Shown here one piece after another: positions 485 to 63,893 of a DNA stretch of 64,000 nt. The stretch's first letter is position 1; every line of letters starts with the position of its first letter. Origin of the DNA: Klebsiella phage 05F01. The notes beneath the pieces are model-generated. The model was not told where the DNA came from. It saw nothing but the letters and a program-made list of their open reading frames with translations, and ran no database searches. The translations under genes were made by a program, and so were the position numbers. The stretch lies in the sequence record LC483177.1. The stretch is one strand, 5' to 3'.

Positions 485-1261
485 ATGAAGGACAAGTATC
501 CTCTTCATGCCGAAGCTACTATTGAGGTTGCCCTACGGGGCTTCCTTGAGTATATAGAATTAGTGAAATTGTATGGTGAAGTGCCTATGTTCTCTAAATC
601 GGTAGATGATGTTTGGCATTTTATGATCCTTGATACAAAGGAGTATCAGAAATTTTGTGAAGAACGTTTAGGATATTTCTTGCATCATGTTCCTACAGGA
701 GAAGGGGACAAGACCCAGGAAGAAGAAAATAAAGCACTTCGTCTTTTATGGATGAGAGCCTGTAAACTTAGAGGATTTAACCCTTTTTCATATAGTCCTT
801 ATGAGTGCCCTGACTTATTTTATGCAGACAAAGTACTACATTCTACTTCTATTTCAACAATCAACTTGGTTGGGGAAGTGACATATGCTAAAGCATCAGT
901 AGAAAATAGAGAAAAAGGTTTGTTTTCAGTTTTTCGTAAAAAAGATACATCTGATTATACTAAGGCGTTAAAAGATAAGTATGACTCATATGGTAAGGAA
1001 GTGTATGACCCCAATACTGATCTTATGCTGCAAACACTAGTTGTGTCTAGTATTTTTGATAGTTCTGGTAACGTAAAGGAAGATGTAAAGAAAGAAACTA
1101 TAATTTCATCTGATCCTCTTGACATCTATTCCAGTTCATATTACGATACACCTACATCGAACAACCACCACACGCATAGTTGTAGTAGTTGTTCAACTAG
1201 TTCATGTTCAAGTAGCAGTTGCTCTTCAAGTAGTTGTTCGAGTAGTAGTTGCTCTAGTTAA
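485..1261 (+). CDS. Hypothetical protein with a C-terminal tandem (S-S-S-S-C)n Ser/Cys tail
   Basis: ORF in the 386..1261 frame, with the start moved to ATG 485 to avoid overlapping the upstream gene. The C-terminus HHTHSCSSCSTSSCSSSSCSSSSCSSSSCSS is encoded by AGT/AGC-TGT/TGC repeats. Confidence 0.5.
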   Translation: MKDKYPLHAEATIEVALRGFLEYIELVKLYGEVPMFSKSVDDVWHFMILDTKEYQKFCEERLGYFLHHVPTGEGDKTQEEENKALRLLWMRACKLRGFNPFSYSPYECPDLFYADKVLHSTSISTINLVGEVTYAKASVENREKGLFSVFRKKDTSDYTKALKDKYDSYGKEVYDPNTDLMLQTLVVSSIFDSSGNVKEDVKKETIISSDPLDIYSSSYYDTPTSNNHHTHSCSSCSTSSCSSSSCSSSSCSSSSCSS

Positions 1262-1271
1262 GGGAGATATT

Positions 1272-1709
1272 ATGAGTATTGTTACACAAATGAAAGCTGA
1301 TCGCATTGTGGCACGAGTTTCTGATAAAGGTACTTTTGCACTTCTTACTAATATTATTGGTGAGTATGACCTTGCTCGCACTCAAAAAGCTAATTTGAGT
1401 AAGTCAGAAGACGATGTTATGACTAAAGTTGTTAAGGTAGGTATTTCACATGCCAAGGAACAGCTATCTTCATTACAAAAAGTAGGTGCACCACAATCAC
1501 AGATTGAACGTGCCATGCGAGATATTGTAGTTCTTGAAAATTACCTCCCAGAAATGTTAAGTGAAGAGGACTTACGTGATATTGCAGAGAACTCTAAACT
1601 TTTGGGATGGAAAATGCCAGATATGATGAGACATCTTCGAGAGGGGTTTCCTAATTGTTATGATGGTGATCTTGCTGTAAAAATCGCAAAAGAGGTGTTA
1701 GATAAATGA
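1272..1709 (+). CDS. GatB/YqeY domain protein
   Basis: RBS GGGAGA precedes ATG 1272. Motifs LENYLPEMLSEEDLRDI and MPDMMRHLREGFPNCYDGDLAVKIAKEVL match the YqeY/GatB C-terminal domain signature (EYLP..LSEEEL..; GKVMG-like tail). Confidence 0.6.
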   Translation: MSIVTQMKADRIVARVSDKGTFALLTNIIGEYDLARTQKANLSKSEDDVMTKVVKVGISHAKEQLSSLQKVGAPQSQIERAMRDIVVLENYLPEMLSEEDLRDIAENSKLLGWKMPDMMRHLREGFPNCYDGDLAVKIAKEVLDK

Positions 1710-2702: not shown

Positions 2703-3365
2703 ATGATGACTATCAAACATATCTCTTTCGATGTATGGAATACCTTAATCACTGCCAATAAGGGGTATGCTTTAGAGCGTTCTCAGGTGATATCTTACTT
2801 TGCAGGTATTTCCACTAAAGAAGCAGCAGAAGCTTATGCACTTGTTAAAATGTCACTTGATATGGACGCTTCTCTTGGTATCTGTAATGGTGTAAGTCAT
2901 GCATGGTATGAACTAGGTAAGTTTTTGGGAGTAGATAGGTCAACAGCAGATAAAATCAGAACGCACTGTGAGAAAGCTTTTATTGCAAACCCACCTCACC
3001 TTGATAAATCTCTGGTTGACGAGTTATCTGCTCTTAGTAATAAACATGAGTTGAGTATTAAAAGTAATACCAACTTTATTTCAGGAGAGGTATTATCTGA
3101 GACTTTGGGTTTTTATGAGATGCCGTGGTGGAGCTTCACCCACTTCTCGGATGATTATGGTTGGTGCAAACCAGATCCACTATTCTTCCAATGGACACAG
3201 GTTTGTAGTGATATTCAAGGTATTCGTGCAGAAGAAATTTTACATGTAGGTGATAGTGAAATTTTTGATGGCAAATGTGTTGACATTGGATTTAACTTCT
3301 GTAAAATTGATAACCCTGAACACTTACTGAATAAACTTAAAAATGGAGAACTCATTAATGCGTAA
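2703..3365 (+). CDS. HAD-superfamily phosphatase/hydrolase-like protein
   Basis: RBS GAGGAAA. N-terminal ISFDVWNTLI resembles HAD motif I (DxDxT variant). C-terminal HVGDSEIFDGK resembles HAD motif IV (GDxxxD). Confidence 0.5.
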   Translation: MMTIKHISFDVWNTLITANKGYALERSQVISYFAGISTKEAAEAYALVKMSLDMDASLGICNGVSHAWYELGKFLGVDRSTADKIRTHCEKAFIANPPHLDKSLVDELSALSNKHELSIKSNTNFISGEVLSETLGFYEMPWWSFTHFSDDYGWCKPDPLFFQWTQVCSDIQGIRAEEILHVGDSEIFDGKCVDIGFNFCKIDNPEHLLNKLKNGELINA

Positions 3366-4185
3366 AACAACTCAATTCTTTGCACACAATTTTTCATCTC
3401 TGGCTGATGCAGGTTTTTCTACAGATGACTACTCCAAACTTAAATTTGGTAGTAATCAGTCAGCAAAGCGTTTGGGTTATGAATTAGCAGATAGGTTCTT
3501 TATTACTAAATGTGCTGATAAGTTTAATGAGCGATTCGTGGTAATTCCTTCACCATACAATCATGTTCACAATGCAGCAACAGAAATGTCTAATCATTTT
3601 GTAAACCGATTGAATTATCTATTCTCATGCAATAAGTATAAGAATAGTGTGGAGTGGGATATTATTCACCGTAAAGTCAGTTATATCAATGATTATGGTT
3701 TCTTGAGCAAAGAGGATCGTAAATCACTTATTGATGGGGATAGCTTCTACCTCAATAAAGAATTCTGGAGTGGAAAGACACTTATTTTTATTGATGATGT
3801 CAACATTACTGGTACCCATGAAGATAAGCTAGTAGACATTCTTAACGAAAATGAAGTAGAAAATGACACTTATTTTCTTTACTTTGCAAAATACACAGGG
3901 ACCGAGGCTAATACCGAAGCTGCATTAAACTTCAGCTATATCCATAGTGTAGAGAAGTTTATTGAGATGATTAAGGAAGAACATGATGCTAAATGTCTGG
4001 TTCGACCAATTAAGTATTTGATGTCTCAACCTGAGATAACATTTAAAGTGGCGATTTCACAATTACCAACCAACTATGTTGAACACTTGTTTTTCGGTTG
4101 CTTGGCAGAAGGCTATGACAAGATTGAAAAATACAATGAGAACTTTGAGTTCTTGAAACATTTCTATGAAAGTAATATCATGTAA
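3358..4185 (+). CDS. Type I phosphoribosyltransferase (PRTase) domain protein
   Basis: TLIFIDDVNITGTHEDK matches the PRPP-binding motif of type I PRTases (hydrophobic-DD-x-x-TG-T). The start was moved to ATG 3358, which is preceded by GGAGA. Confidence 0.55.
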   Translation: MRKTTQFFAHNFSSLADAGFSTDDYSKLKFGSNQSAKRLGYELADRFFITKCADKFNERFVVIPSPYNHVHNAATEMSNHFVNRLNYLFSCNKYKNSVEWDIIHRKVSYINDYGFLSKEDRKSLIDGDSFYLNKEFWSGKTLIFIDDVNITGTHEDKLVDILNENEVENDTYFLYFAKYTGTEANTEAALNFSYIHSVEKFIEMIKEEHDAKCLVRPIKYLMSQPEITFKVAISQLPTNYVEHLFFGCLAEGYDKIEKYNENFEFLKHFYESNIM

Positions 4186-4826: not shown

Positions 4827-4851
4827 AAGGGGCGCAAGCCCCTTATTTTTA
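4827..4851 (+). terminator. Rho-independent terminator (AAGGGGCGCAAGCCCCTT plus T-run)
   Basis: GC-rich stem with a GCAA loop and TATTTTT. Confidence 0.7.
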
Positions 4852-4860
4852 GGGTACAAT

Positions 4861-5202
4861 ATGTCAGACTTCAGTTATGTAAAGATGGTTAAAGCAAATA
4901 AAGTCCATAGATGTTGTGAATGTAGGGGTAAAATACATAAATCAGATAAGTATGAAAAATCTTTTATTGTTCAGGATGGTGATGTAAGTGAATATAAAGT
5001 ATGTAAACACTGCTGTGAGTCTCGTGATTGGTTATTAGACCATACAGACTGGAACCATGATATTGATGGAGAAGGGCATTCTTTTTATTACACAATGCTA
5101 CGAGAACATCTGAAGGAGCAAGCCACATATGGTAATAAAGATCTATCTTTTGCTTGCTATAGACATATCGTGAGAATGGACCAAAGGAGAAAAAATGAAT
5201 AA
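4861..5202 (+). CDS. Small Cys-rich zinc-ribbon protein
   Basis: Four CxxC-like pairs (CCECRG, CKHCCE). Confidence 0.45.
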   Translation: MSDFSYVKMVKANKVHRCCECRGKIHKSDKYEKSFIVQDGDVSEYKVCKHCCESRDWLLDHTDWNHDIDGEGHSFYYTMLREHLKEQATYGNKDLSFACYRHIVRMDQRRKNE

Positions 5203-5333
5203 ACTATATTGGATACTCCTTATTTTGTCATACATCATGTTGAGTTATAATACAATTGAGTCATCTATATTTGGTTCAATGATTCTTATATCTGCAAATA
5301 CAATAGTATTTTATGATTGCAAAAGGAGGGAAA

Positions 5334-6614
5334 ATGTCAGAAAGTAAAATGTTGATTATGTTCGATTCTAAGAATAACAACAATAAATATTATGAAGCTA
5401 CATTAGATGATGCAGGAAATATCTCTGTTCGTTATGGGCGTGTTGGTGGTGGTGCTCAAACCACATCATATTCTGGTGGTAAACGTAAATTTGATAGCCT
5501 CATCTCCTCTAAAATTAAGAAAGGGTATAAAGAGGCACAACTTGAAGTGGTGAGCAGTGATACCGGATTAGTTAAACGTGGTAACGTTGTTGATGTTGCA
5601 CTGAAGCAGATTGATACTCAAGATGATATGAGTCGTGCTTTAATTCAGACCATCGCTAAAGCAAATATTCATAACATCACAAGCAGCACTAACATTAAAT
5701 ATGATGAAAAAGATGGCTTGTTTAAGACTCCTCTTGGAGTAGTTAAGAAGGAGGCTGTAGAAGAAGCAACTGCTTTACTGAGTAAGATCGAAGTTCATTT
5801 ACCTGCTTACTTAAATGATGGGAGTATGGAAGCAGAAATCTCTTCCCTAAATGACTCTTATTTTGTGCTTATTCCAAATAAGGTAAATACTACACGAGAT
5901 AAACGTTTTCTTCTCTTTAGTCAGAAAAATATTGATGTTCAAAAATCTGTATGTAAGGCACTATTGGAGACACTAGACCTTATTGAAGATCTTAAAAACA
6001 ATACAAATGAAGAAGAAAAAGTTGAAGTAGAGAAGATCTTTAACTTAGAAATCTCTCATGTAGAAGATGCCCAAACTATTGACCGTATTGTAAAATACTA
6101 CAATGAGAGTAAAAACTCCGATCATGGTGGTAGAATTATGGGGAGTCGTGTTAAAAACATTTACAAGATTAATCTGGGTAATCAGCAACAGCCTTTTGAG
6201 GAAGCTAAAGAGAAGTATGGGAACGTCCATGAGTTCTGGCATGGCACACGTGTAGCTAACCTCCTCTCTATCTTCTGTAAAGGACTTATGATGCCTAAAG
6301 AGAGTCCTGGAGCTAAGGCTGGTGCAATGTTTGGTTATGGAATTTACTTTGCTAACCAAAGTTCAAAAAGTATTAACTATTGTGACGGAATGTACTGGAC
6401 AGGTGGAAGTAACAGTGGTAAAGTTTACATGTTCCTTGCTTCTGTGGCTGTAGGTAAAGCGTATACGCCACCTCATTCTACACAAAGTAATCCACCAAAA
6501 GGTTATGATAGCTATTGGGCTAAAGCAGGTAAGTCTGGTGTTAGAAACGATGAGATCATTGTCTTTGACTTGAGTCAAGTTAGACTTGATTATTTACTCG
6601 AAATTGAAATCTAA
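5334..6614 (+). CDS. PARP-like ADP-ribosyltransferase with an N-terminal WGR domain
   Basis: RBS AGGAGGG precedes ATG 5334. WGR-like KYYEATLDDAGNISVRYGRVGGGAQTTSYSGGKRKF..KKGY. Catalytic-domain motifs are present: FWHGTR (H-G-S/T), GYGIYFANQSSKSINYC (Y-F-A...SKS) and NDEIIVFDLSQVRLDYLLEIEI (catalytic Glu). These correspond to the PARP1 H-Y-E signature. Confidence 0.75.
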   Translation: MSESKMLIMFDSKNNNNKYYEATLDDAGNISVRYGRVGGGAQTTSYSGGKRKFDSLISSKIKKGYKEAQLEVVSSDTGLVKRGNVVDVALKQIDTQDDMSRALIQTIAKANIHNITSSTNIKYDEKDGLFKTPLGVVKKEAVEEATALLSKIEVHLPAYLNDGSMEAEISSLNDSYFVLIPNKVNTTRDKRFLLFSQKNIDVQKSVCKALLETLDLIEDLKNNTNEEEKVEVEKIFNLEISHVEDAQTIDRIVKYYNESKNSDHGGRIMGSRVKNIYKINLGNQQQPFEEAKEKYGNVHEFWHGTRVANLLSIFCKGLMMPKESPGAKAGAMFGYGIYFANQSSKSINYCDGMYWTGGSNSGKVYMFLASVAVGKAYTPPHSTQSNPPKGYDSYWAKAGKSGVRNDEIIVFDLSQVRLDYLLEIEI

Positions 6615-6630
6615 TTAAGGGGAAGGTTTT

Positions 6631-7560
6631 ATGAAGAAGATAGTCTCTGAGAATGGTATGGTGACAAAATACCTCCATAATAATGGAACAGAAACATCCT
6701 TTAAGAAACAGTTATCAGGTAGCTACGTAGATTCACTAGTTAAGCCTGATTTTAAAGATAAGAAAAAGTATAGCTTAGTTTTGTCATGTTCTCATGGATG
6801 TCAGTTATCTTGTTCATTTTGCCACTTAACTCAAAATGGTAAACCTTTCAATAAGATCAACACTGAAGATGTTATTGAAAATATTAAAGAGGTCATTACT
6901 GATCAAATTAATGAAGATCCTTCACTGAAAAGTAAGTATATAAAATTTTGCTGGCTGGGGGAAGGTGAACCATTACTTAATTATGAGATGATTAAGCGTG
7001 CTACTATTGAAGTGCTATTTTGGGTATTAGAAAACAAATATGCTCTTGGTTTGGATGGAGTTGACATTTCAACTTCAATGCCAAGGGTCAAGAAAGAAAC
7101 AATAAAGGATCTTAAATGGTTCAATAAATATCTTTCTGTATTCAATAAAAACCCAAACAACAAAGATAAAACAGCACTAAGATTATTTTATTCTTTACAT
7201 GCAGTAGATAATGACATTAGGTCTAAAATGATGCCAAAAACCATTCATATTAATGATGCTGTGAAATGCATGAAGGAAGTTGGTGATGAATTTGGAATTG
7301 ACACAATTTTCCATTATACATGGATAGAAGGTAAGAATGATTCAGATGATGATGTAGATAATCTTATTAAGTTTTGGAATGAGAACTCTCTACAGAAAAG
7401 TCAACTTCGTGTCTTAAGGTACAATAGTGGGACTAATCTAGATGAAGAAAGTGAAAATCTTGGTAAGATAATTTCAAAATTAAAGAAATTCATTCCAAAT
7501 CTGAAAGTTCAACATTCAGCAGGAAAAGAGGTCCAATCTTCTTGTGGTATGTTCAACTAA
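6631..7560 (+). CDS. Radical SAM enzyme, RlmN/Cfr-like
   Basis: SCSHGCQLSCSFCHLTQNG contains the CxxxCxxC radical-SAM cluster in an RlmN/Cfr-type context (GCxLxCxFCxTxQxG). WLGEGEPLLNYEM matches the RlmN GMGEPLLN motif. Confidence 0.55.
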   Translation: MKKIVSENGMVTKYLHNNGTETSFKKQLSGSYVDSLVKPDFKDKKKYSLVLSCSHGCQLSCSFCHLTQNGKPFNKINTEDVIENIKEVITDQINEDPSLKSKYIKFCWLGEGEPLLNYEMIKRATIEVLFWVLENKYALGLDGVDISTSMPRVKKETIKDLKWFNKYLSVFNKNPNNKDKTALRLFYSLHAVDNDIRSKMMPKTIHINDAVKCMKEVGDEFGIDTIFHYTWIEGKNDSDDDVDNLIKFWNENSLQKSQLRVLRYNSGTNLDEESENLGKIISKLKKFIPNLKVQHSAGKEVQSSCGMFN

Positions 7561-7613
7561 TCTTGATTAAGATCATTATAAAAAGTGATGGAATACGTTA
7601 AAATAATAAGACA

Positions 7614-7640
7614 CAAGCCGGAATTTTCCGGCTTTATTTC
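7614..7640 (+). terminator. Rho-independent terminator (AAGCCGGAATTTTCCGGCTT plus T-run)
   Basis: Perfect inverted repeat followed by TATTTC. Confidence 0.65.
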
Positions 7641-7654
7641 ATTATGGAGGATAA

Positions 7655-9769
7655 GTGAAAAAAGTTATTAAGCGTGATGGCAGAAAAGAAAATTATGATG
7701 AAGGCAAGATTTATCAGGCAGTGTATCAGGCTGCAAATAGTATCAACCTACTATCATTAACTTGTGAAGAAATTGCTAATGATGTTGCAGAGCACATTTC
7801 AAATAAAGTAAAGAATAGAGATGAATTAAAAATAAAAGATATTGAGTCTCTGGTAGAAAATTATCTTATGTCAAAGAATAAGACCAGAGATGTGGCAAGA
7901 AAGTATATTGAATATCGTCATGATAGAGATAGTGCAAGAGAATCTGGCGGAAAACTCTATAATGATTTGTTAGGTTTTCTTGACCAAAGCAATGAAGAGT
8001 TCACGAGAGAGAATGCCAATAAACCAAGTACCCTCGTAAACACCCACAGAGACCTCTTAGCGGGTATTTTAAGTAAACACATAGCAACCACACAGATTCT
8101 CCCTAAAAACCTCTCAGAATGGCATAGAGAAGGTTGGGGACACATTCATGACTTAGATTATTTAGTTAGTCCTCTCACGAATTGTTGTTTGGTTAACTAT
8201 CGTGATATGTTAGAGAATGGATTTAAGATTGGTAATGCTCAAATTGAAAAACCCAAGTCAATTGGTGTAGCTACTACAGTGCTTACTCAAATCATTCAAG
8301 CTGTAGCATCTAGTCAATATGGTGGACAAACTTGTGCTCATATTGATTCAGGATTGAAACAGTATGTAGAACTCTCTTTCAATAAGAATGTAAAACTTAT
8401 TAGGAACTTGTTTGGTGCTGAAATAAAAACAAACGCTATGCAACTCACCGAACAAGATGTATATGATGCAATGCAGACGCTTATCTATCAAGTCAATACC
8501 TTAATGAGTGTAAATGGTCAATCTCCTTTTATTACTATCAGTCTGGGACTAGATACCTCAGAATTTGGTAGAATGATCACCAGGAATTATTTACAGATCC
8601 ATAAAGAAGGGTTAGGGGTTGATAAAGTCACTCCCGTATTCCCTAAAGTTATCTTCTTCCTTGAAGAAGGTGTTAATATGAATCCAGGTGACCCTAATTA
8701 TGATTTAAAACAATTGGCACTGGAGTGTTGTTCTGAACGTATTTATCCAGATTTTATTTCAGTTCCTCGTAATAAGATGGTAACTAATTCTTCTGATGGA
8801 CATGTAACCAGCATGGGATGCAGGTCGTTCCTTTCTTACTATGCTACTGAGCAAGGTGAGAAATATGATGGGAGATTTAATCTTGGTGTTGTCTCTGTCA
8901 ATCTTCCTATGATTGCCAAAGATTGTGTAGTAAATGGGAAGCTCTTCATTGAAGAACTCTATAAGCACATGAGGAACGCCTTTGATGCCCATATGGTGAG
9001 GATTAATCGGTTAAAAGGAACAAAAGCAAAACAAAATCCTGTCTTGTTCATGGAAGGTGCATTATCACGTCTGGATGCAGAAGATACTATTGACAAACTT
9101 TTCTATAAAGGATATGCTTCAGCTAGCTTTGGCTATGTTGGGTTATATGAAGCTGTTCAGATTTTGTATCCTAATACATCTCTAGAAGAGTATCGAGAAA
9201 AAGGATCTTTTATTCTTGATCGAATGCAGAGTATGTCAGATGAATATAAAAATAAGACTAATATTAGCTTCAGTCTTTATGGTACCCCTGCTGAAAGCTT
9301 GTGTTACAAATTTGCATCTCAACTTAATGATAAGTTCCCTGGAACATTAGAAAAAGATTATTTAACAAACTCTTTTCATGTCCCTGTTGATGTAGCTGTT
9401 AACCCATTCACTAAATGGGAAATTGAATCTGGATTTGACATTTTAAGTAGTGGTGGGAATATCGGGTATGTTGAGACACCTAATCTAAAAGGGAATATGA
9501 AAGCACTAGAGACGCTTGTTGACTTTGGTTATAGTAATATACATTACTTTGGTATCAATCAGCCAATTGATAAGTGCTTTAAATGTGGGTTCAGTGGTGA
9601 GTTTAAAGCCACACAAGATGGATTTAGTTGTCCTGAATGTGGTAACTCAGATGAAGAAACTATCAGTGTGATTCGTCGTGTTAGTGGATACTTATCTAGT
9701 CCTAATAGTAGACCTTTTAACAAAGGGAAGATGCAAGAAGTTGTCCAACGTGTGAAACACACTAGTTGA
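7655..9769 (+). CDS. nrdD: Anaerobic ribonucleoside-triphosphate reductase (class III RNR)
   Basis: GTG start after GGAGGA. N-terminal ATP-cone KRDGRKENYDEGKI. Extensive colinear similarity to E. coli NrdD (GNAQIEKPKS, DPNYDLKQLALEC, TSMGCRSF, the C-terminal Zn ribbon CFKCGF..CPECGN and the glycyl-radical motif RRVSGYL). Confidence 0.95.
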   Translation: MKKVIKRDGRKENYDEGKIYQAVYQAANSINLLSLTCEEIANDVAEHISNKVKNRDELKIKDIESLVENYLMSKNKTRDVARKYIEYRHDRDSARESGGKLYNDLLGFLDQSNEEFTRENANKPSTLVNTHRDLLAGILSKHIATTQILPKNLSEWHREGWGHIHDLDYLVSPLTNCCLVNYRDMLENGFKIGNAQIEKPKSIGVATTVLTQIIQAVASSQYGGQTCAHIDSGLKQYVELSFNKNVKLIRNLFGAEIKTNAMQLTEQDVYDAMQTLIYQVNTLMSVNGQSPFITISLGLDTSEFGRMITRNYLQIHKEGLGVDKVTPVFPKVIFFLEEGVNMNPGDPNYDLKQLALECCSERIYPDFISVPRNKMVTNSSDGHVTSMGCRSFLSYYATEQGEKYDGRFNLGVVSVNLPMIAKDCVVNGKLFIEELYKHMRNAFDAHMVRINRLKGTKAKQNPVLFMEGALSRLDAEDTIDKLFYKGYASASFGYVGLYEAVQILYPNTSLEEYREKGSFILDRMQSMSDEYKNKTNISFSLYGTPAESLCYKFASQLNDKFPGTLEKDYLTNSFHVPVDVAVNPFTKWEIESGFDILSSGGNIGYVETPNLKGNMKALETLVDFGYSNIHYFGINQPIDKCFKCGFSGEFKATQDGFSCPECGNSDEETISVIRRVSGYLSSPNSRPFNKGKMQEVVQRVKHTS

Positions 9770-10126: not shown

Positions 10127-10672
10127 ATGAATTATAACTTTAAAGGTAGTCCAGGTAATTGGTTTTATGGGGAGTATGGTGGTGTTGACGGACAGGGCTT
10201 CTTTGTTGGCTCTAATCAGTATTACGACGGCTGCAATTATGTTGCTCGTATAAATGGAACAACAGAAAAACATAAAGCTGATGCAAAACTCATTTCTAAA
10301 TGTCCAGAATTACTTAAAACAATCATTGGAGATAATCACACTCTTCCAGAATTACTAGATTGGGTTGCTGACAGGTTGGTATATGTCTATCATGAGCACC
10401 ATAATGTAGATTTTGTTCAGGAGTTACGGAATAGATCGAAGAAACTTCAAAGTATTCTTGATGAAGTTGTTCATGAAGAGTTGCCAAAGATACTTTCAAG
10501 AGATGAAAAGATAGAGTTCATTAAAATTAGGTACCTCAATAACGAGAATGGTGTTTATTTTTGTAATCAAGATGGTGTCGCTACATATTTTTCACATATG
10601 CATAATATTGTTTTCTCAAGAAAAGAGTGGGAAGATGAAATTTGGCCTAAGTTGCAGCAGGAGGTAAAATGA
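10127..10672 (+). CDS. Hypothetical protein
   Basis: 181-aa ORF with RBS AGGAGAG. Confidence 0.5.
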   Translation: MNYNFKGSPGNWFYGEYGGVDGQGFFVGSNQYYDGCNYVARINGTTEKHKADAKLISKCPELLKTIIGDNHTLPELLDWVADRLVYVYHEHHNVDFVQELRNRSKKLQSILDEVVHEELPKILSRDEKIEFIKIRYLNNENGVYFCNQDGVATYFSHMHNIVFSRKEWEDEIWPKLQQEVK

Positions 10673-10827
10673 ATGCATACAAAGAGATCATTGAGGCATT
10701 AGAGTGGTATTTAGGCGATGGCGTAAACCCACTGAGTTCAGACTGTATATATGAAATTATTAATCAAGAGCACGACCCTATTGAAACAATAGCAAAAGCT
10801 CTGGATTATTATAGGGAAAATAAATGA
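10669..10827 (+). CDS. Hypothetical small protein (52 aa), not in the ORF track
   Basis: It is translationally coupled by ATGA overlaps at both ends, with the upstream ORF and with nrdG. It fills an otherwise non-coding 150-nt gap. Confidence 0.35.
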   Translation: MNAYKEIIEALEWYLGDGVNPLSSDCIYEIINQEHDPIETIAKALDYYRENK

Positions 10828-11312
10828 ACTACGCAGGGTACATTTTTGGTGACCTTGTGAATGGAGAGGGAGCTAGATGTTCCCTTTTTGTTTCTGGTTG
10901 CTCAAGAGGTTGTGAAGGGTGCTTTAACAAAGAGACTTGGGATTATTCCTATGGTTCTGTGTATACAAAAGAAACACAAGAAATGATTCTAAGAGATTTA
11001 TCAAAAGGTTACATCTCAGGACTGAGTATCTTAGGAGGTAATCCTTTAGAGAGAAAGAATTTTGATGTAGTGTACAACTTATGTGAAGAAGTTAAAAACA
11101 CATTTACAAACAAAGACATATGGATTTGGTGTGGTCAAACTTTTGAAGAAATCTCAAATGATAGTAAATTTAGTAAGATATTGCCCTTGACAGATGTTTT
11201 GGTGGATGGTAAATTTATCCCATCGAAAGCGAATCCTTCCTTGAAGTGGAGAGGTTCAAGTAATCAGAACATTTGGGTTAAGAGGGATGAAGAGTGGATT
11301 ATTCAACATTAA
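10824..11312 (+). CDS. nrdG: Anaerobic ribonucleotide reductase activating protein (radical SAM)
   Basis: Near-colinear with E. coli NrdG: DIVNGEGARCSLFVSGCSRGCEGCFNK, DIWIWCGQTFEE, VLVDGKFIPSKANPSLKWRGSSNQ. Confidence 0.95.
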   Translation: MNYAGYIFGDLVNGEGARCSLFVSGCSRGCEGCFNKETWDYSYGSVYTKETQEMILRDLSKGYISGLSILGGNPLERKNFDVVYNLCEEVKNTFTNKDIWIWCGQTFEEISNDSKFSKILPLTDVLVDGKFIPSKANPSLKWRGSSNQNIWVKRDEEWIIQH

Positions 11313-12510: not shown

Positions 12511-13575
12511 ATGAACACTTTTATGAAATTTTACAAATGGCCCACATTCTTCTTTGTGTTGGCACTTTTAGCAGGGGCATGGATTGGCTTCGTTGAGGCT
12601 GGTGTAAGTGGAATGTTAAGTAGTGTATTGGCTGTTGGTATTCTGTGTATTCTTGAAATCTCACTGTCATTTGACAATGCGGTATTGAATGCTAAAAAAC
12701 TTCAAGATATGGAACAAAAATGGCGTGATTGGTTTATTAAGTGGGGGATGCTGATCGCCGTTTTCGGAATGCGCTTGGTTCTTCCTATCCTTATCGTATC
12801 TGTCTTAGGTGGAATGGCTCCGTGGACTGCTGTAAGCTTAGGTCTACATGACCCAGCTAAGTATGCAGAGGTGTTGCAAAGTAGCCACCATATTGTAGCT
12901 AGCTTTGGTGGTGCGTTCCTGATGATGGTTGCTCTTGAGTTCTTCCTTGATCATGAAAAAGATGTTCACTGGATGAAATGGATTGAATATCCTGTTAGTC
13001 ATATTGGTAAAGTGGGTATTGTTGCAGAAGCTTTCATTACACTTCTTATGATTATTGGAGCAAGTTTTGGTGCTCATGGAGATGATCAAGTGATGTTTAT
13101 TATCTCAGGTGTATGTGGTATCCTGCTCTTTGTGGGTATTCATTTCCTGAAAGAGTATCTTGAATCGAAGGATGAAGAGAAAGCAGCGGCATCTGTTGGT
13201 GCAGTAGTTAAATCAGGATTGGCTGGTGTTCTCTACCTAGAAGTTCTGGATGCATCTATGTCTTTTGATGGCCTGATTGCTGCATTTGCGATTACACAAT
13301 ATTTTCTTGTGATTATGTTAGGTTTGGGTGTTGGTGCCTTCTTTGTCCGAGAAATGACACTGCATGTTCTTGATAGTGGACATCTTGCTGAATTCCGTTA
13401 CCTTGAACATGGTGCTTTCTATGCTATCTTTTCTCTGGCTAGCATCATGCTCCTAAACTTCTTCTTTGAAGTCCCAGAAGTTGTCACCGGATTGATTGGT
13501 GTAGCATTCCTTACAGCAGCAGTGTGGCATAGTCATATCCTTAATAAACGTGAAGAGTCTCTTGTTACAAGTTGA
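12511..13575 (+). CDS. TerC-family (DUF475-like) integral membrane protein
   Basis: Multiple TM helices. LEISLSFDNAVLNA matches the TerC-family E-x-SLS-x-DN hallmark. A second DASMSFDG repeat shows the internal duplication typical of TerC. Confidence 0.6.
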   Translation: MNTFMKFYKWPTFFFVLALLAGAWIGFVEAGVSGMLSSVLAVGILCILEISLSFDNAVLNAKKLQDMEQKWRDWFIKWGMLIAVFGMRLVLPILIVSVLGGMAPWTAVSLGLHDPAKYAEVLQSSHHIVASFGGAFLMMVALEFFLDHEKDVHWMKWIEYPVSHIGKVGIVAEAFITLLMIIGASFGAHGDDQVMFIISGVCGILLFVGIHFLKEYLESKDEEKAAASVGAVVKSGLAGVLYLEVLDASMSFDGLIAAFAITQYFLVIMLGLGVGAFFVREMTLHVLDSGHLAEFRYLEHGAFYAIFSLASIMLLNFFFEVPEVVTGLIGVAFLTAAVWHSHILNKREESLVTS

Positions 13576-15825: not shown

Positions 15826-16974
15826 ATGAAAAAAGTAAAACTAAGTATTGTTGAAGATTACGTAAGTCACTGGTCTTGGTGGGAAGGTGTCCGAGAACTT
15901 TTACAGAACGCCATCGATACAAAAGAATATGAAGTTGATTTTCTTTCCAATGCGATTAAGATCTCATCTCATGGAGGTAAAATACCTACACAAGCACTTC
16001 TGATGGGGCGCTCATCTAAGCAAGATGATGAAAGCACTATTGGTAAGTTTGGTGAAGGTATGAAACTTGGTTTTCTTGTCCTTATTCGTGAAGGTGCAAA
16101 AGTTCATGTTAATAACTTCTCAGATGTTTGGGAACCTGCTATGGAAATGGATGACACATTCGATCAGGAGATTCTGTGTGTGAATATTCATGAGAATATT
16201 TTACCAATGAATCAGAAAGTCGAAGTGGTGATTAATAATATCCCTAACCATGCTATGGCAGAGATTAAAGAGAAATTTGCACCACAAAAAGATTTAAAAG
16301 TGGCAATATCCAATGATAAGGGAACTGCTTACTTTAAAGATCGTGAAGGAAGTGATTGTAATTTATATGTTAGTGGGCTATTTGTATGCTCTGTTCAGGG
16401 TAAATACAAATTTGACTATGATTTCAAACCGGATGTGTTTGAACTCGATCGTGATAGGGATTCTGTTAGTGAGTTTAATGTTCAGTATTATGCATCACAA
16501 CTCATCTCTGAAAGTGACGATATCGAACTGTTGGTTGAACTTGCAATGGAAGAGTTTGACGATTTGAAATACTTTGAGGGTCGTAGAAAGAAAAACTCTG
16601 TAGGTAAATATTGGGGATGTTCATTAGATGAAAGTGAAGAAGATATTCTCACTGACCATGCTGTTGAACTTTTTGAAGAGAAGTATGGATATGATGCTGT
16701 CCCTATCAACGATTCCTGGAGTCAAGAGAAGAAATCCACTATCACAAAAGTGGCTATCTCTAAGGGATTTACTCCTATTGCAGTTAAAAAATCCCTTTAC
16801 AGTATGATTCAAGGTAGATACAATATTGAAGGTGAAGTTAACGAAATCTTGAAATTTGATGCTCTGGATTTCTTGGAGAATTTCCTTAAAAAATATGAGC
16901 GTAAGTTGTATAATAAGCCACGAAAAGAAATTGAGAATGTTATCTTCAAACTTAAACTTGCAAAAGAAAAGTGA
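15826..16974 (+). CDS. GHKL-type (Hsp90/MORC/MutL-like) ATPase domain protein
   Basis: N-box RELLQNAIDT (ExxxNAxD). A G2-box-like IGKFGEGMKLGFLV resembles Hsp90 IGQFGVGFYSAF. The start was moved to ATG 15826 after GAGGTGACA. Confidence 0.5.
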   Translation: MKKVKLSIVEDYVSHWSWWEGVRELLQNAIDTKEYEVDFLSNAIKISSHGGKIPTQALLMGRSSKQDDESTIGKFGEGMKLGFLVLIREGAKVHVNNFSDVWEPAMEMDDTFDQEILCVNIHENILPMNQKVEVVINNIPNHAMAEIKEKFAPQKDLKVAISNDKGTAYFKDREGSDCNLYVSGLFVCSVQGKYKFDYDFKPDVFELDRDRDSVSEFNVQYYASQLISESDDIELLVELAMEEFDDLKYFEGRRKKNSVGKYWGCSLDESEEDILTDHAVELFEEKYGYDAVPINDSWSQEKKSTITKVAISKGFTPIAVKKSLYSMIQGRYNIEGEVNEILKFDALDFLENFLKKYERKLYNKPRKEIENVIFKLKLAKEK

Positions 16975-16980
16975 GGTAGT

Positions 16981-18036
16981 ATGACAAGCCCTTTTAAACA
17001 ACAAACAGCTACAAAAGCTAAGTCACCGTTTGGTAACGTAGAGATTAAGAATAGTCCTATCAAGGCCCCAACTATTTCTAAAATTCCTAAAACACCTGTT
17101 ATCCGTTTGACTGAAGAAGAGATTGAATCCCTTGGAAGTGCTACTGGCACTTCTTTGAGGGCAGTATCTGGACAAATGCTGGCATTTCAACAGAACAATT
17201 CTAATGATGAAATGACCAGTCGTCTCAACACTATGATGCTGGAAGCTAAAAAACTTGATCCAGATTCTATCAAGCAAGCTAAAGGTATTTCTAAATTCAT
17301 TAAAAAGATTATGGGTGTAAAAGAAAACCTCTTTGCTGAATTTAAGACAATTGAGGCTCGCATTAATGAACTGTCAGAAGAAATTATGAAGGATATCCGA
17401 AAGCAAAATGATAGCTTGGTGTTCCTTGATAATTTAAAACGATCTGTAGGTGAGTTTCTACTTTCTATGGAACGTGACCTACAAATTCTGCAAGCAGAGT
17501 ATGAGAAGACTGAAGAAGACTTTAATATTGCTGATCCAGAAGACAAAAATGAACTACAGGCACGTCTTGACCTTATTTTAACTCGTGTTGCAGATATTAA
17601 AGGATTCAGAATCCTTTGTGTTCAGATGGGGCAGCGCATTGACAATATGAAGAAAACCAGTAAGATGCTTACTGTAGGTGCTAAGAACTTGCTAGAAAAA
17701 GCTGTTCCGGCTTATGCAGCATCTTTCTCCATTTACATTACAGCGAAAGAACAAGTTGAGGCTGCTAAAACTCAGAATAATATTATTGATGGATTTAATG
17801 ATGTTATTCAGAAAGGTAATGAAATGGCTAATGTTGCTCAAATTGAAGCAACTAAACTGTCAAATAAACAGACTGTTTCTCTTGAAACACTAAACCATGC
17901 TAAAGAGTCAATGTTCACTCTATTTGATGAAGTTGACCGCCTTAATAAAGAGGCTCGTGCAAACACACTTGAGTATATCAAAGCAGCAGATGTCCTTGAG
18001 TCCGATATTGCTAAACGTATTAGGGATGCCCGATAA
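16981..18036 (+). CDS. TelA-like (toxic anion resistance/KlaB family) coiled-coil protein, tentative
   Basis: 351 aa with a Lys/Pro-rich disordered N-terminus followed by a long all-helical body. It lies two genes upstream of the vWA-TerD pair. The assignment rests on composition and context only. Confidence 0.3.
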   Translation: MTSPFKQQTATKAKSPFGNVEIKNSPIKAPTISKIPKTPVIRLTEEEIESLGSATGTSLRAVSGQMLAFQQNNSNDEMTSRLNTMMLEAKKLDPDSIKQAKGISKFIKKIMGVKENLFAEFKTIEARINELSEEIMKDIRKQNDSLVFLDNLKRSVGEFLLSMERDLQILQAEYEKTEEDFNIADPEDKNELQARLDLILTRVADIKGFRILCVQMGQRIDNMKKTSKMLTVGAKNLLEKAVPAYAASFSIYITAKEQVEAAKTQNNIIDGFNDVIQKGNEMANVAQIEATKLSNKQTVSLETLNHAKESMFTLFDEVDRLNKEARANTLEYIKAADVLESDIAKRIRDAR

Positions 18037-63817: not shown

Positions 63818-63893
63818 TGGTGGGGCCAGATGGATTCGAACCACCGACACCCTGATCTTCAATCAGGTGCTCTACCAACTGAGCTATAACCCC
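63818..63893 (-). tRNA. tRNA-Phe (anticodon GAA), 76 nt with encoded CCA
   Basis: Minus-strand sequence GGGGTTATAGCTCAGTTGGTAGAGCACCTGATTGAAGATCAGGGTGTCGGTGGTTCGAATCCATCTGGCCCCACCA. It has a 7-bp acceptor stem, a D-arm GCTC/GAGC, an anticodon loop TTGAAGA and a T-arm GGTGG-TTCGAAT-CCATC. Confidence 0.85.

Follow-up and report, generated by a model that had tools for sequence, protein, structure and literature searches.

The question raised by positions 6631 to 7560 of a 64,000-nucleotide stretch of Klebsiella phage 05F01 (sequence record LC483177.1; this whole stretch is called the window) is what kind of radical S-adenosylmethionine (SAM) enzyme is encoded there and on which nucleic acid it may act. 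A sequence-only reading had taken the open reading frame (ORF) for an RlmN/Cfr-like methyltransferase that could modify host ribosomes or transfer RNAs (tRNAs). What defines the class A radical SAM methylases is a mechanism with two cysteines, established on RlmN and Cfr; RlmN produces m2A2503 within 23S ribosomal RNA (rRNA) as well as m2A37 in tRNA, and Cfr, an antibiotic resistance determinant, produces m8A2503 in 23S rRNA. The 309-residue protein of the window has an RlmN-type core and is closest to RlmN and Cfr, the class A radical SAM methyl synthases, and it is an orthologue of neither. The explanation that we lean to, as somewhat probable, is an accessory phage tRNA C-methylase of the class A type, which would act at or near A37 with C305 as the methyl carrier and with a non-canonical resolving step.

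Family assignment of the 309-residue protein

The gene and its translation signal are located in the window as follows.

6631..7560, + strand: ORF for the 309-residue RlmN/Cfr-like (class A type) radical SAM protein, from the ATG at 6631 to the stop codon ending at 7560
6617..6626, + strand: Shine-Dalgarno-like AAGGGGAAGG, read directly from the sequence, with 4 nucleotides between its end and the ATG

The ORF is a genuine gene and its family match is not due to chance, because the Pfam Radical_SAM model PF04055 was matched above its gathering cut-off (E 2.3e-9, 38.1 bits vs 29.5), 109 homologues were found in a large protein collection (E down to 1e-197, 30-95% identity, mostly full length) and a confident AlphaFold2 model was obtained. 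The stop codon of the upstream gene (6612-6614) stands 16 nucleotides ahead of the ATG, so that no extra N-terminal domain can be encoded for this protein. The two peptides on which the sequence-only reading had relied, the cysteine motif context SCSHGCQLSCSFCHLTQNG (residues 52-70) and WLGEGEPLLN (residues 108-117), are both present in the ORF.

The hidden Markov model (HMM) search that the same reading had proposed, with Radical_SAM and the RlmN model TIGR00048, came out in favour of the family assignment. TIGR00048 was the best of the NCBIfam models (E 2.5e-17, residues 41-307 opposite positions 99-341 in a profile of 355), at 62.8 bits and hence below its cut-off of 290. It was followed by other RlmN and Cfr models, those of Cfr (TIGR04432/NF000424/NF011024) scoring 36.3-39.1 bits vs cut-offs of 468-550, and the HMMs of NrdG, QueE-like proteins, MoaA and peptide maturases were orders of magnitude weaker than RlmN. 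When the family profile was run against the PDB, exactly five distinct sequences were obtained at E <=0.001, all of them RlmN or Cfr with E values of about 1e-20. In the single-sequence PDB search polyubiquitin had come first (E about 1e-11) and was rejected, as each matching stretch was insignificant (i-Evalue >=7) and the score was an artefact of summing over nine repeats.

The AlphaFold2 model was built from 31 homologues (mean pLDDT 93.3, pTM 0.91). With this predicted structure the top seven Foldseek matches in the PDB were RlmN chains (6fz6, 5hr7, 3rfa; E 2e-15 to 7e-12, TM about 0.6-0.7), followed by PFL-activase (PFL-AE, 2e-8), SuiB, Cfr (5.7e-8) and viperin, and the top matches among viral models were a 'COG0820' (RlmN-type) phage protein and 201phi2-1 gp434. 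In the radical SAM superfamily a CX3CX2C motif inside a partial TIM-barrel core binds the [4Fe-4S] cluster. Membership of this superfamily follows from the invariant CX3CX2C motif, the passed Pfam threshold and the agreement of the modelled fold with radical SAM structures, and the closest fold, as judged from the model, is that of RlmN/Cfr. A better match to a QueE- or viperin-like subgroup, which had been named beforehand as the outcome against the assignment, was not seen: QueE, viperin, MoaA and SPASM maturases were rejected as far weaker by both HMM and fold, and NrdG was likewise much weaker. The RlmN/Cfr match is therefore correct at the superfamily level by HMM, by the family profile against the PDB and by Foldseek. 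The protein is not an RlmN or Cfr orthologue, since the N-terminal domain is missing and all curated cut-offs, that of the RlmN equivalog and those of Cfr, are missed by a wide margin.

Catalytic residues and domain organization

The protein was compared with RlmN of Escherichia coli MG1655 by a MAFFT alignment and a HMMER profile alignment, and the following elements were placed, all on the + strand.

6673..6705, + strand: N-terminal beta motif L15-K25 'LHNNGTETSFK', put by MAFFT opposite RlmN 'DGTIKW' and preceding the radical SAM core
6778..6780, + strand: V50, aligned with the resolving C118 of RlmN by the profile and E. coli alignments; no cysteine
6787..6789, + strand: C53, a clade-specific cysteine four residues ahead of the cluster motif, opposite RlmN S121 in the alignment
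6799..6822, + strand: CX3CX2C (C57, C61, C64), the [4Fe-4S] ligands; invariant, opposite RlmN C125/C129/C132
6949..6981, + strand: 'CWLGEGEPLLN' (C107-N117), in the alignments the counterpart of RlmN 'VMMGMGEPLLN'
7543..7545, + strand: C305 in 'SSCGMF', equivalent to the methyl-carrier C355 in RlmN 'AACGQL'; invariant in all full-length homologues

Class A methylases 'use two conserved cysteine residues' (review PMC9692996), and the sequence-only reading had asked for such a pair beyond the cluster ligands. Half of it is there: the carrier cysteine of the flexible C-terminal 'ACGQ' loop (C355 of RlmN, C338 of Cfr) is present as the invariant C305, and the resolving cysteine (C118 of RlmN, C105 of Cfr), which stands seven residues before the first cluster cysteine, is absent, with V50 in its place. 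With this position and the missed cut-offs, the expectation of an RlmN orthologue carrying both catalytic cysteines was not borne out. The loss is general in the family. The residues at the C118 position were F44/V35/I21/L6/C1 in the 107 homologues with an intact motif and F81/Y13/V9/I4/M3/C3/L1/S1 in 115 further cluster representatives, so that 218 of 222 relatives have no cysteine there (mostly F/V/I/L/Y), and both cysteines are retained only by four short proteins (P0109, P0194, P0235 and P0236).

Two other cysteines, C53 and C107, might possibly substitute for the missing C118, and neither is universal. At the C53 position 32 of the 107 homologues have Cys and most others have S/A/G/H; the C107 position, which lies opposite RlmN V174 and two residues before M176, is Cys in 25 and Ser in 6 of the 31 aligned members. 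All family members share H228 and D145, of which H228 sits where RlmN has Glu in 'IEYVML', and the methyl-synthase motif 'SLH...R..(I/V)P' is kept.

The N-terminal helical domain of RlmN is also lacking. Residues 1 to about 90 of the E. coli protein have no counterpart, and the 309-residue protein starts instead with a beta-rich segment of 45 residues, whose motif has the family consensus HxDGSETSIK (H16, T22 and K25 nearly invariant) and is predicted as beta strands in the model. In the RlmN-tRNA complex R206 contacts tRNA G29 (PMC5130265), and the segment 'SKRR' that holds this residue is deleted in the phage protein. The isoelectric point was discarded as a pointer to nucleic-acid binding, being uninformative (8.5 for this protein, 6.7 as the family median and 6.6 for E. 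coli RlmN).

Gene neighbourhoods and tRNA genes

For the analysis of gene neighbourhoods, 50 loci were pooled, and their ORFs were called and clustered by all-against-all BLASTP. Dereplication of the loci, with a 70% identity limit on the radical SAM protein, left 23 lineages, and neighbours were counted within 8 kb. By ARAGORN, the gene lies inside a phage tRNA array in 5/23 lineages, with a tRNA gene 15-380 nucleotides upstream. The adjoining tRNAs of these lineages are as follows.

L035: Leu-CAA
L052: Gln-UUG
L023: Glu-UUC
L031: Gln-CUG
L034: Ile and Glu-UUC

With two further lineages, tRNA genes occur within 8 kb in 7/23. Loci centred on phage PhoH genes (79 loci, a single control family counted without dereplication) were used as the control, and any tRNA was found within 8 kb in 1/79 of them and in 0/31 of those on contigs of at least 50 kb; the Fisher p values for radical SAM vs PhoH loci were 9e-5 (8 kb) and 4e-4 (1 kb).

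Genes for RNA repair and tRNA enzymes recur as well. RlaP, the RNA-ligase-associated nucleotidyltransferase, was found in 7/23 lineages and an AAA_33 polynucleotide-kinase-like protein in 5/23. Another protein, recurrent in 5 lineages, had no Pfam match at E <=1 and shows metallophosphoesterase-like His/Asp motifs by eye, its homologue at locus L011 bearing a weak Metallophos_2 mark. YqeY, whose domain resembles the tRNA-binding tail of GatB, is encoded 9 and 34 nucleotides upstream of the gene in two clades with radical SAM proteins only about 32% identical. Single lineages have Thg1 about 20 nucleotides upstream, or a T4-type RNA ligase 1 and PNKP about 300 nucleotides downstream, and a weak PTH2 match and a queuosine-salvage gene about 5 kb away were also among the neighbours. 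Altogether, 15/23 lineages have, within 8 kb, a tRNA gene or a gene for an RNA-repair/tRNA enzyme, and 1/23 has NrdD. It is from this company in other phages, the tRNA arrays and RNA-repair genes, that tRNA is taken as the probable target. A caution applies to the link, as many unrelated ORFs sit in tRNA islands.

Some other features of these loci were recorded. A 214-residue protein near the homologues of 3 lineages (L046, 12983-13627) has class II aminoacyl-tRNA synthetase-like motifs, with a very weak tRNA-synt_2d match (E 0.17). The island with the homologue at L034 also holds a transfer-messenger RNA and a tRNA with the anticodon CUA (amber suppressor, 'Pyl') at 10534-10929 and 16299-16374, respectively. 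L006, a locus on a metagenomic contig of 294 kb, has at 800-876 a tRNA-like gene whose anticodon is of four bases (aggg), and an IS605 OrfB/TnpB (Cas12f-like) gene at 6550-7698 directly upstream of the homologue; the same protein occurs on contigs of up to 540 kb.

Accessory status of the gene

The phage of the window is a large myovirus. Its relatives include the Klebsiella phages vB_KpM_FBKp34 and KP13-16 (Stephanstirmvirinae), with a nucleotide identity to these of about 75% across about half of a 7-kb query. The features around the gene are as follows.

4827-4844: terminator-like hairpin, upstream of a small Cys-rich ORF
4861-5202, + strand: small Cys-rich ORF of 113 residues, the first gene after that hairpin
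5313..6614, + strand: gene with WGR, PARP_reg and PARP catalytic domains (Pfam), ending 16 nucleotides before the radical SAM start
7615..7644, + strand: terminator-like hairpin (7615-7634) with a T-rich tail, seen in the sequence between the radical SAM gene and nrdD
7655..9769, + strand: nrdD, anaerobic ribonucleotide reductase (Pfam), beginning 94 nucleotides downstream of the radical SAM gene
10824..11312, + strand: nrdG, the dedicated NrdD activase (Fer4_12, E 1.2e-49; relatives carry this gene under the annotation nrdG)

The gene with the PARP domain and the radical SAM gene share one interval between the same two terminator-like hairpins, and in FBKp34 a terminator is annotated at the place equivalent to 7615-7644. 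FBKp34 and KP13-16 have the same frame from the PARP gene to nrdD-nrdG, and their slot holds a hypothetical gene and a YqeY gene and no radical SAM gene. No close copy of the gene was found in isolated phages by tblastn, the relatives there being all <30% identical. Metagenomic relatives with a 77% identical protein have the order PARP-YqeY-rSAM-nrdD (rSAM being the radical SAM gene), and one with a 91% identical protein has the order PARP-61 aa-rSAM-nrdD. Because the closest isolates do not have the gene and other genes fill the same slot between PARP and nrdD, the radical SAM gene is accessory cargo in a variable slot and not a core gene; its lower GC content (31.7% vs 35.7% for the window) is consistent with this status. 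The PARP gene is kept in FBKp34, KP13-16 and the metagenomic relatives, whether or not these carry the radical SAM gene; it and nrdD are context only for the latter.

YqeY genes were also met in other places: upstream of the radical SAM gene, at a distance of about 5 kb, the gene at 1119-1709 (+ strand) is weakly YqeY-like with a score under the cut-off (E 2.4e-4), and a clear YqeY gene in related phages (L056, 2064-2501) adjoins the radical SAM gene or replaces it.

Proposed reaction and alternative explanations

For the class A tRNA C-methylase proposed here, C305 would be methylated by one SAM, and a second SAM would be cleaved at the [4Fe-4S] cluster to the 5'-deoxyadenosyl radical, which would take a hydrogen from methyl-C305 and leave there a methylene radical; this in turn would add to an sp2 carbon of an RNA purine. 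As C118, the cysteine by which RlmN is released, is missing, the release step would have to use another group, the candidates being C53 or C107 in the 309-residue protein, or the family-invariant H228 or D145. The target tRNAs may be encoded by the phage, the host or both, and the most economical guess for the position is A37 beside the anticodon, as with RlmN. The gene would then probably tune or protect tRNAs during infection.

Several observations weigh against this explanation. C118, which is reported as indispensable for the turnover of RlmN and Cfr (PMC9692996), is missing, and so are the N-terminal domain of RlmN and the tRNA-contact segment with R206, so that RNA recognition, if any, must differ from that of RlmN. 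The only tRNA found in the window is 56 kb from the gene. The nearest tRNA of the homologues was an RlmN-substrate species of E. coli (list of PMC5130265) in 4/7 cases vs a baseline of 24%, which is not significant (p = 0.06), and the control for tRNA proximity rests on one family, PhoH, with loci that are not dereplicated.

A stronger form of the proposal is that this RlmN-like clade, which is large and viral, completes tRNA C-methylation without a resolving cysteine by an undescribed mechanism, or that its members are not methylases at all; we regard it as doubtful. In the latter case a stable methylene-bridged adduct with the target RNA, or some other radical transformation, is possible. 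If the stronger form holds, a phage countermeasure in conflicts over tRNA, e.g. against anticodon nucleases, would be conceivable; tRNAs are often targeted by bacterial immunity.

A related alternative, which we consider unlikely, is a different chemistry in which the protein, for want of the resolving cysteine, would form a stable methylene-bridged cross-link with RNA, or would run a non-methylating reaction with C305 as a hydrogen-atom donor. It would agree with the lack of Cys at the C118 position in 218/222 relatives and in a sister group from jumbo phages (see below), and with the covalent RNA adduct that is trapped by the C118A variant of RlmN (PMC9692996). A suicide enzyme of a single turnover would be costly for a phage, however, the role of the base is open to other residues, and the 'ACGQF' loop and the 'MGMGE' and 'SLH...R..(I/V)P' motifs are conserved; the methyl-synthase motifs being kept, the same relay of a methyl group from SAM to Cys is suggested.

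Methylation of A2503 of 23S rRNA at C2 or C8, as done by RlmN and Cfr, with changed host ribosomes and possibly a changed antibiotic susceptibility, is quite improbable. The closest characterised homologues do act on A2503, and RlmN itself acts on both rRNA and tRNA (PMC5130265), but the scores stand far below the cut-offs for RlmN (62.8 vs 290 bits) and Cfr (36-39 vs 468-550), the N-terminal domain is absent, and C2 methylation would presumably be redundant, as the enterobacterial hosts carry RlmN. Near the gene, no ribosome-related gene was noticed and tRNA and tRNA/RNA-repair genes are present. Of the suggestion of the sequence-only reading that host ribosomes or tRNAs are modified, the tRNA part is thus the one favoured by the gene neighbourhoods and the ribosome part is not supported; nor was any evidence found in this analysis for an effect on antibiotic susceptibility or for a link of the protein to Cfr-like resistance.

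More improbable still is the C-methylation of a base of the phage DNA as protection from restriction, which that reading had touched on with another nucleic-acid substrate. Modification of phage DNA is common, some of its pathways having radical SAM enzymes (PMC8989533), and in the window the gene stands among the nucleotide-metabolism genes nrdD and nrdG. The closest isolated relatives do not have the gene, however, which would be unusual for a genome-wide modification system, no conserved partner genes were seen (the NrdD neighbourhood occurs in 1/23 lineages), and the recurrent neighbours are tRNA and RNA-repair genes.

A role as the activase or helper of the adjacent glycyl-radical enzyme NrdD, to which the position 94 nucleotides upstream of nrdD and the secondary structural match to PFL-activase could point, is very improbable and largely refuted, because a separate canonical NrdG is encoded at 10824-11312 and NrdD is a neighbour in 1/23 lineages; in addition, a terminator-like hairpin lies between the gene and nrdD, the NrdG model TIGR02495 gave E 0.0055 and 16 bits vs a cut-off of 131, and the relatives encode both NrdD and NrdG although they do not have the radical SAM gene.

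Distribution and relation to known systems

In an exhaustive profile search, 167 representatives (clusters at 50% identity) were obtained at E <=1e-30 and 3180 at E <=1e-10, the latter set being expected to include the much larger cellular RlmN/Cfr families. The carriers are mainly large phage contigs (100-540 kb), including T4-like ones and contigs of 294-540 kb, one with TnpB adjoining; in one case Wadjet genes stand close by, and this context may belong to a cell or a prophage. The members are labelled in databases as 'Fe-S-cluster redox domain-containing' or, by transfer, as 'RlmN'. Literature searches on phage RlmN-like enzymes gave nothing relevant. The existence of the family was already known, and its architecture with a single cysteine and without the N-terminal domain, together with the tRNA-island context, appears not to have been described before.

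RlmN (TIGR00048; PDB 3RFA, 5HR7, 6FZ6) is the best match of the phage protein in both sequence and structure. The CX3CX2C core, a motif of the 'MGMGEPLLN' type, 'SLH..n...R..(I/V)P', a 'DGTxK'-like beta extension and the methyl-carrier cysteine in a C-terminal 'ACGQ' loop are common to both, at an identity of about 18%. The phage protein differs by the absence of the helical domain of about 90 residues at the N-terminus, by Val for Cys118 (F/V/I/L/Y in the family), by the deletion of 'SKRR' with R206 and by His228 for Glu. The dual specificity of RlmN for rRNA and tRNA is described in PMC5130265. Cfr (PDB 9P0P) agrees with the phage protein in its class A architecture and its C-terminal cysteine (family profile E 3e-20), is a weaker single-protein match than RlmN (36-39 bits vs cut-offs of 468-550; Foldseek E 5.7e-8) and, unlike the phage protein, retains the resolving Cys105 (PMC9692996).

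PHROG 27142, the 'Fe-S-cluster redox domain-containing' proteins of jumbo phages (201phi2-1 gp434, Phabio, Psa21, CcrColossus and Brevundimonas phages), is a sister group of short RlmN-like phage proteins (E 3.6e-24, 22-27% identity). Like the present family it has no N-terminal domain; its residue at the C118 position is Tyr, and it keeps the C-terminal cysteine in 'KASCG(T/M)F'. It lacks the HxDGSETSIK motif and is too distant to be the same family. One of its members has a gene for a CCA-adding enzyme 2 kb away.

A sizeable protein family from phages and metagenomes with the carrier cysteine and no resolving cysteine amounts to a natural experiment on the class A mechanism. If the protein is a tRNA C-methylase, its place within tRNA arrays and RNA-repair islands would enlarge the toolkit with which phages supply, tune and protect tRNAs. 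For annotation, neither the name 'RlmN' nor the Cfr-like resistance that it implies should be passed to these genes, a correction relevant to the safety screening of therapeutic phages.

Other genes and features of the window

The product of the gene at 5313-6614 has the architecture of a eukaryote-like poly(ADP-ribose) polymerase (PARP, E 4e-26). Pfam gave no match for the 113-residue ORF at 4861-5202, in which there are several pairs of the CxxC type (HRCCECRGK...CKHCC). NrdD has 704 residues in the window and 706 in KP13-16 vs 1005 in FBKp34 (L001, 5290-8307), which suggests an insertion in the last, e.g. an intein, an intron-derived stretch or an added domain. Stress genes of the tellurite-resistance type are scattered on the + strand at 3343-4185, 12511-13575 and 16981-18036, and their set comprises a ComF-like PRTase_3, a TerC/DUF475 membrane protein and TelA (E 4e-44, 5e-93 and 8e-27, respectively). 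One tRNA gene was found in the window, at its right edge, and may be the start of a phage tRNA cluster that lies beyond.

63818-63893, - strand: tRNA-Phe(GAA)

The sequence-only reading had placed the radical SAM gene in an early region, which is reasonable, as it belongs to a + strand block with the PARP-like, NrdD and NrdG genes, opposite to a - strand block further right. At about 32 kb the GC skew flips its sign (roughly +0.18 before and -0.1 after), matching the switch of the ORFs from the + to the - strand.

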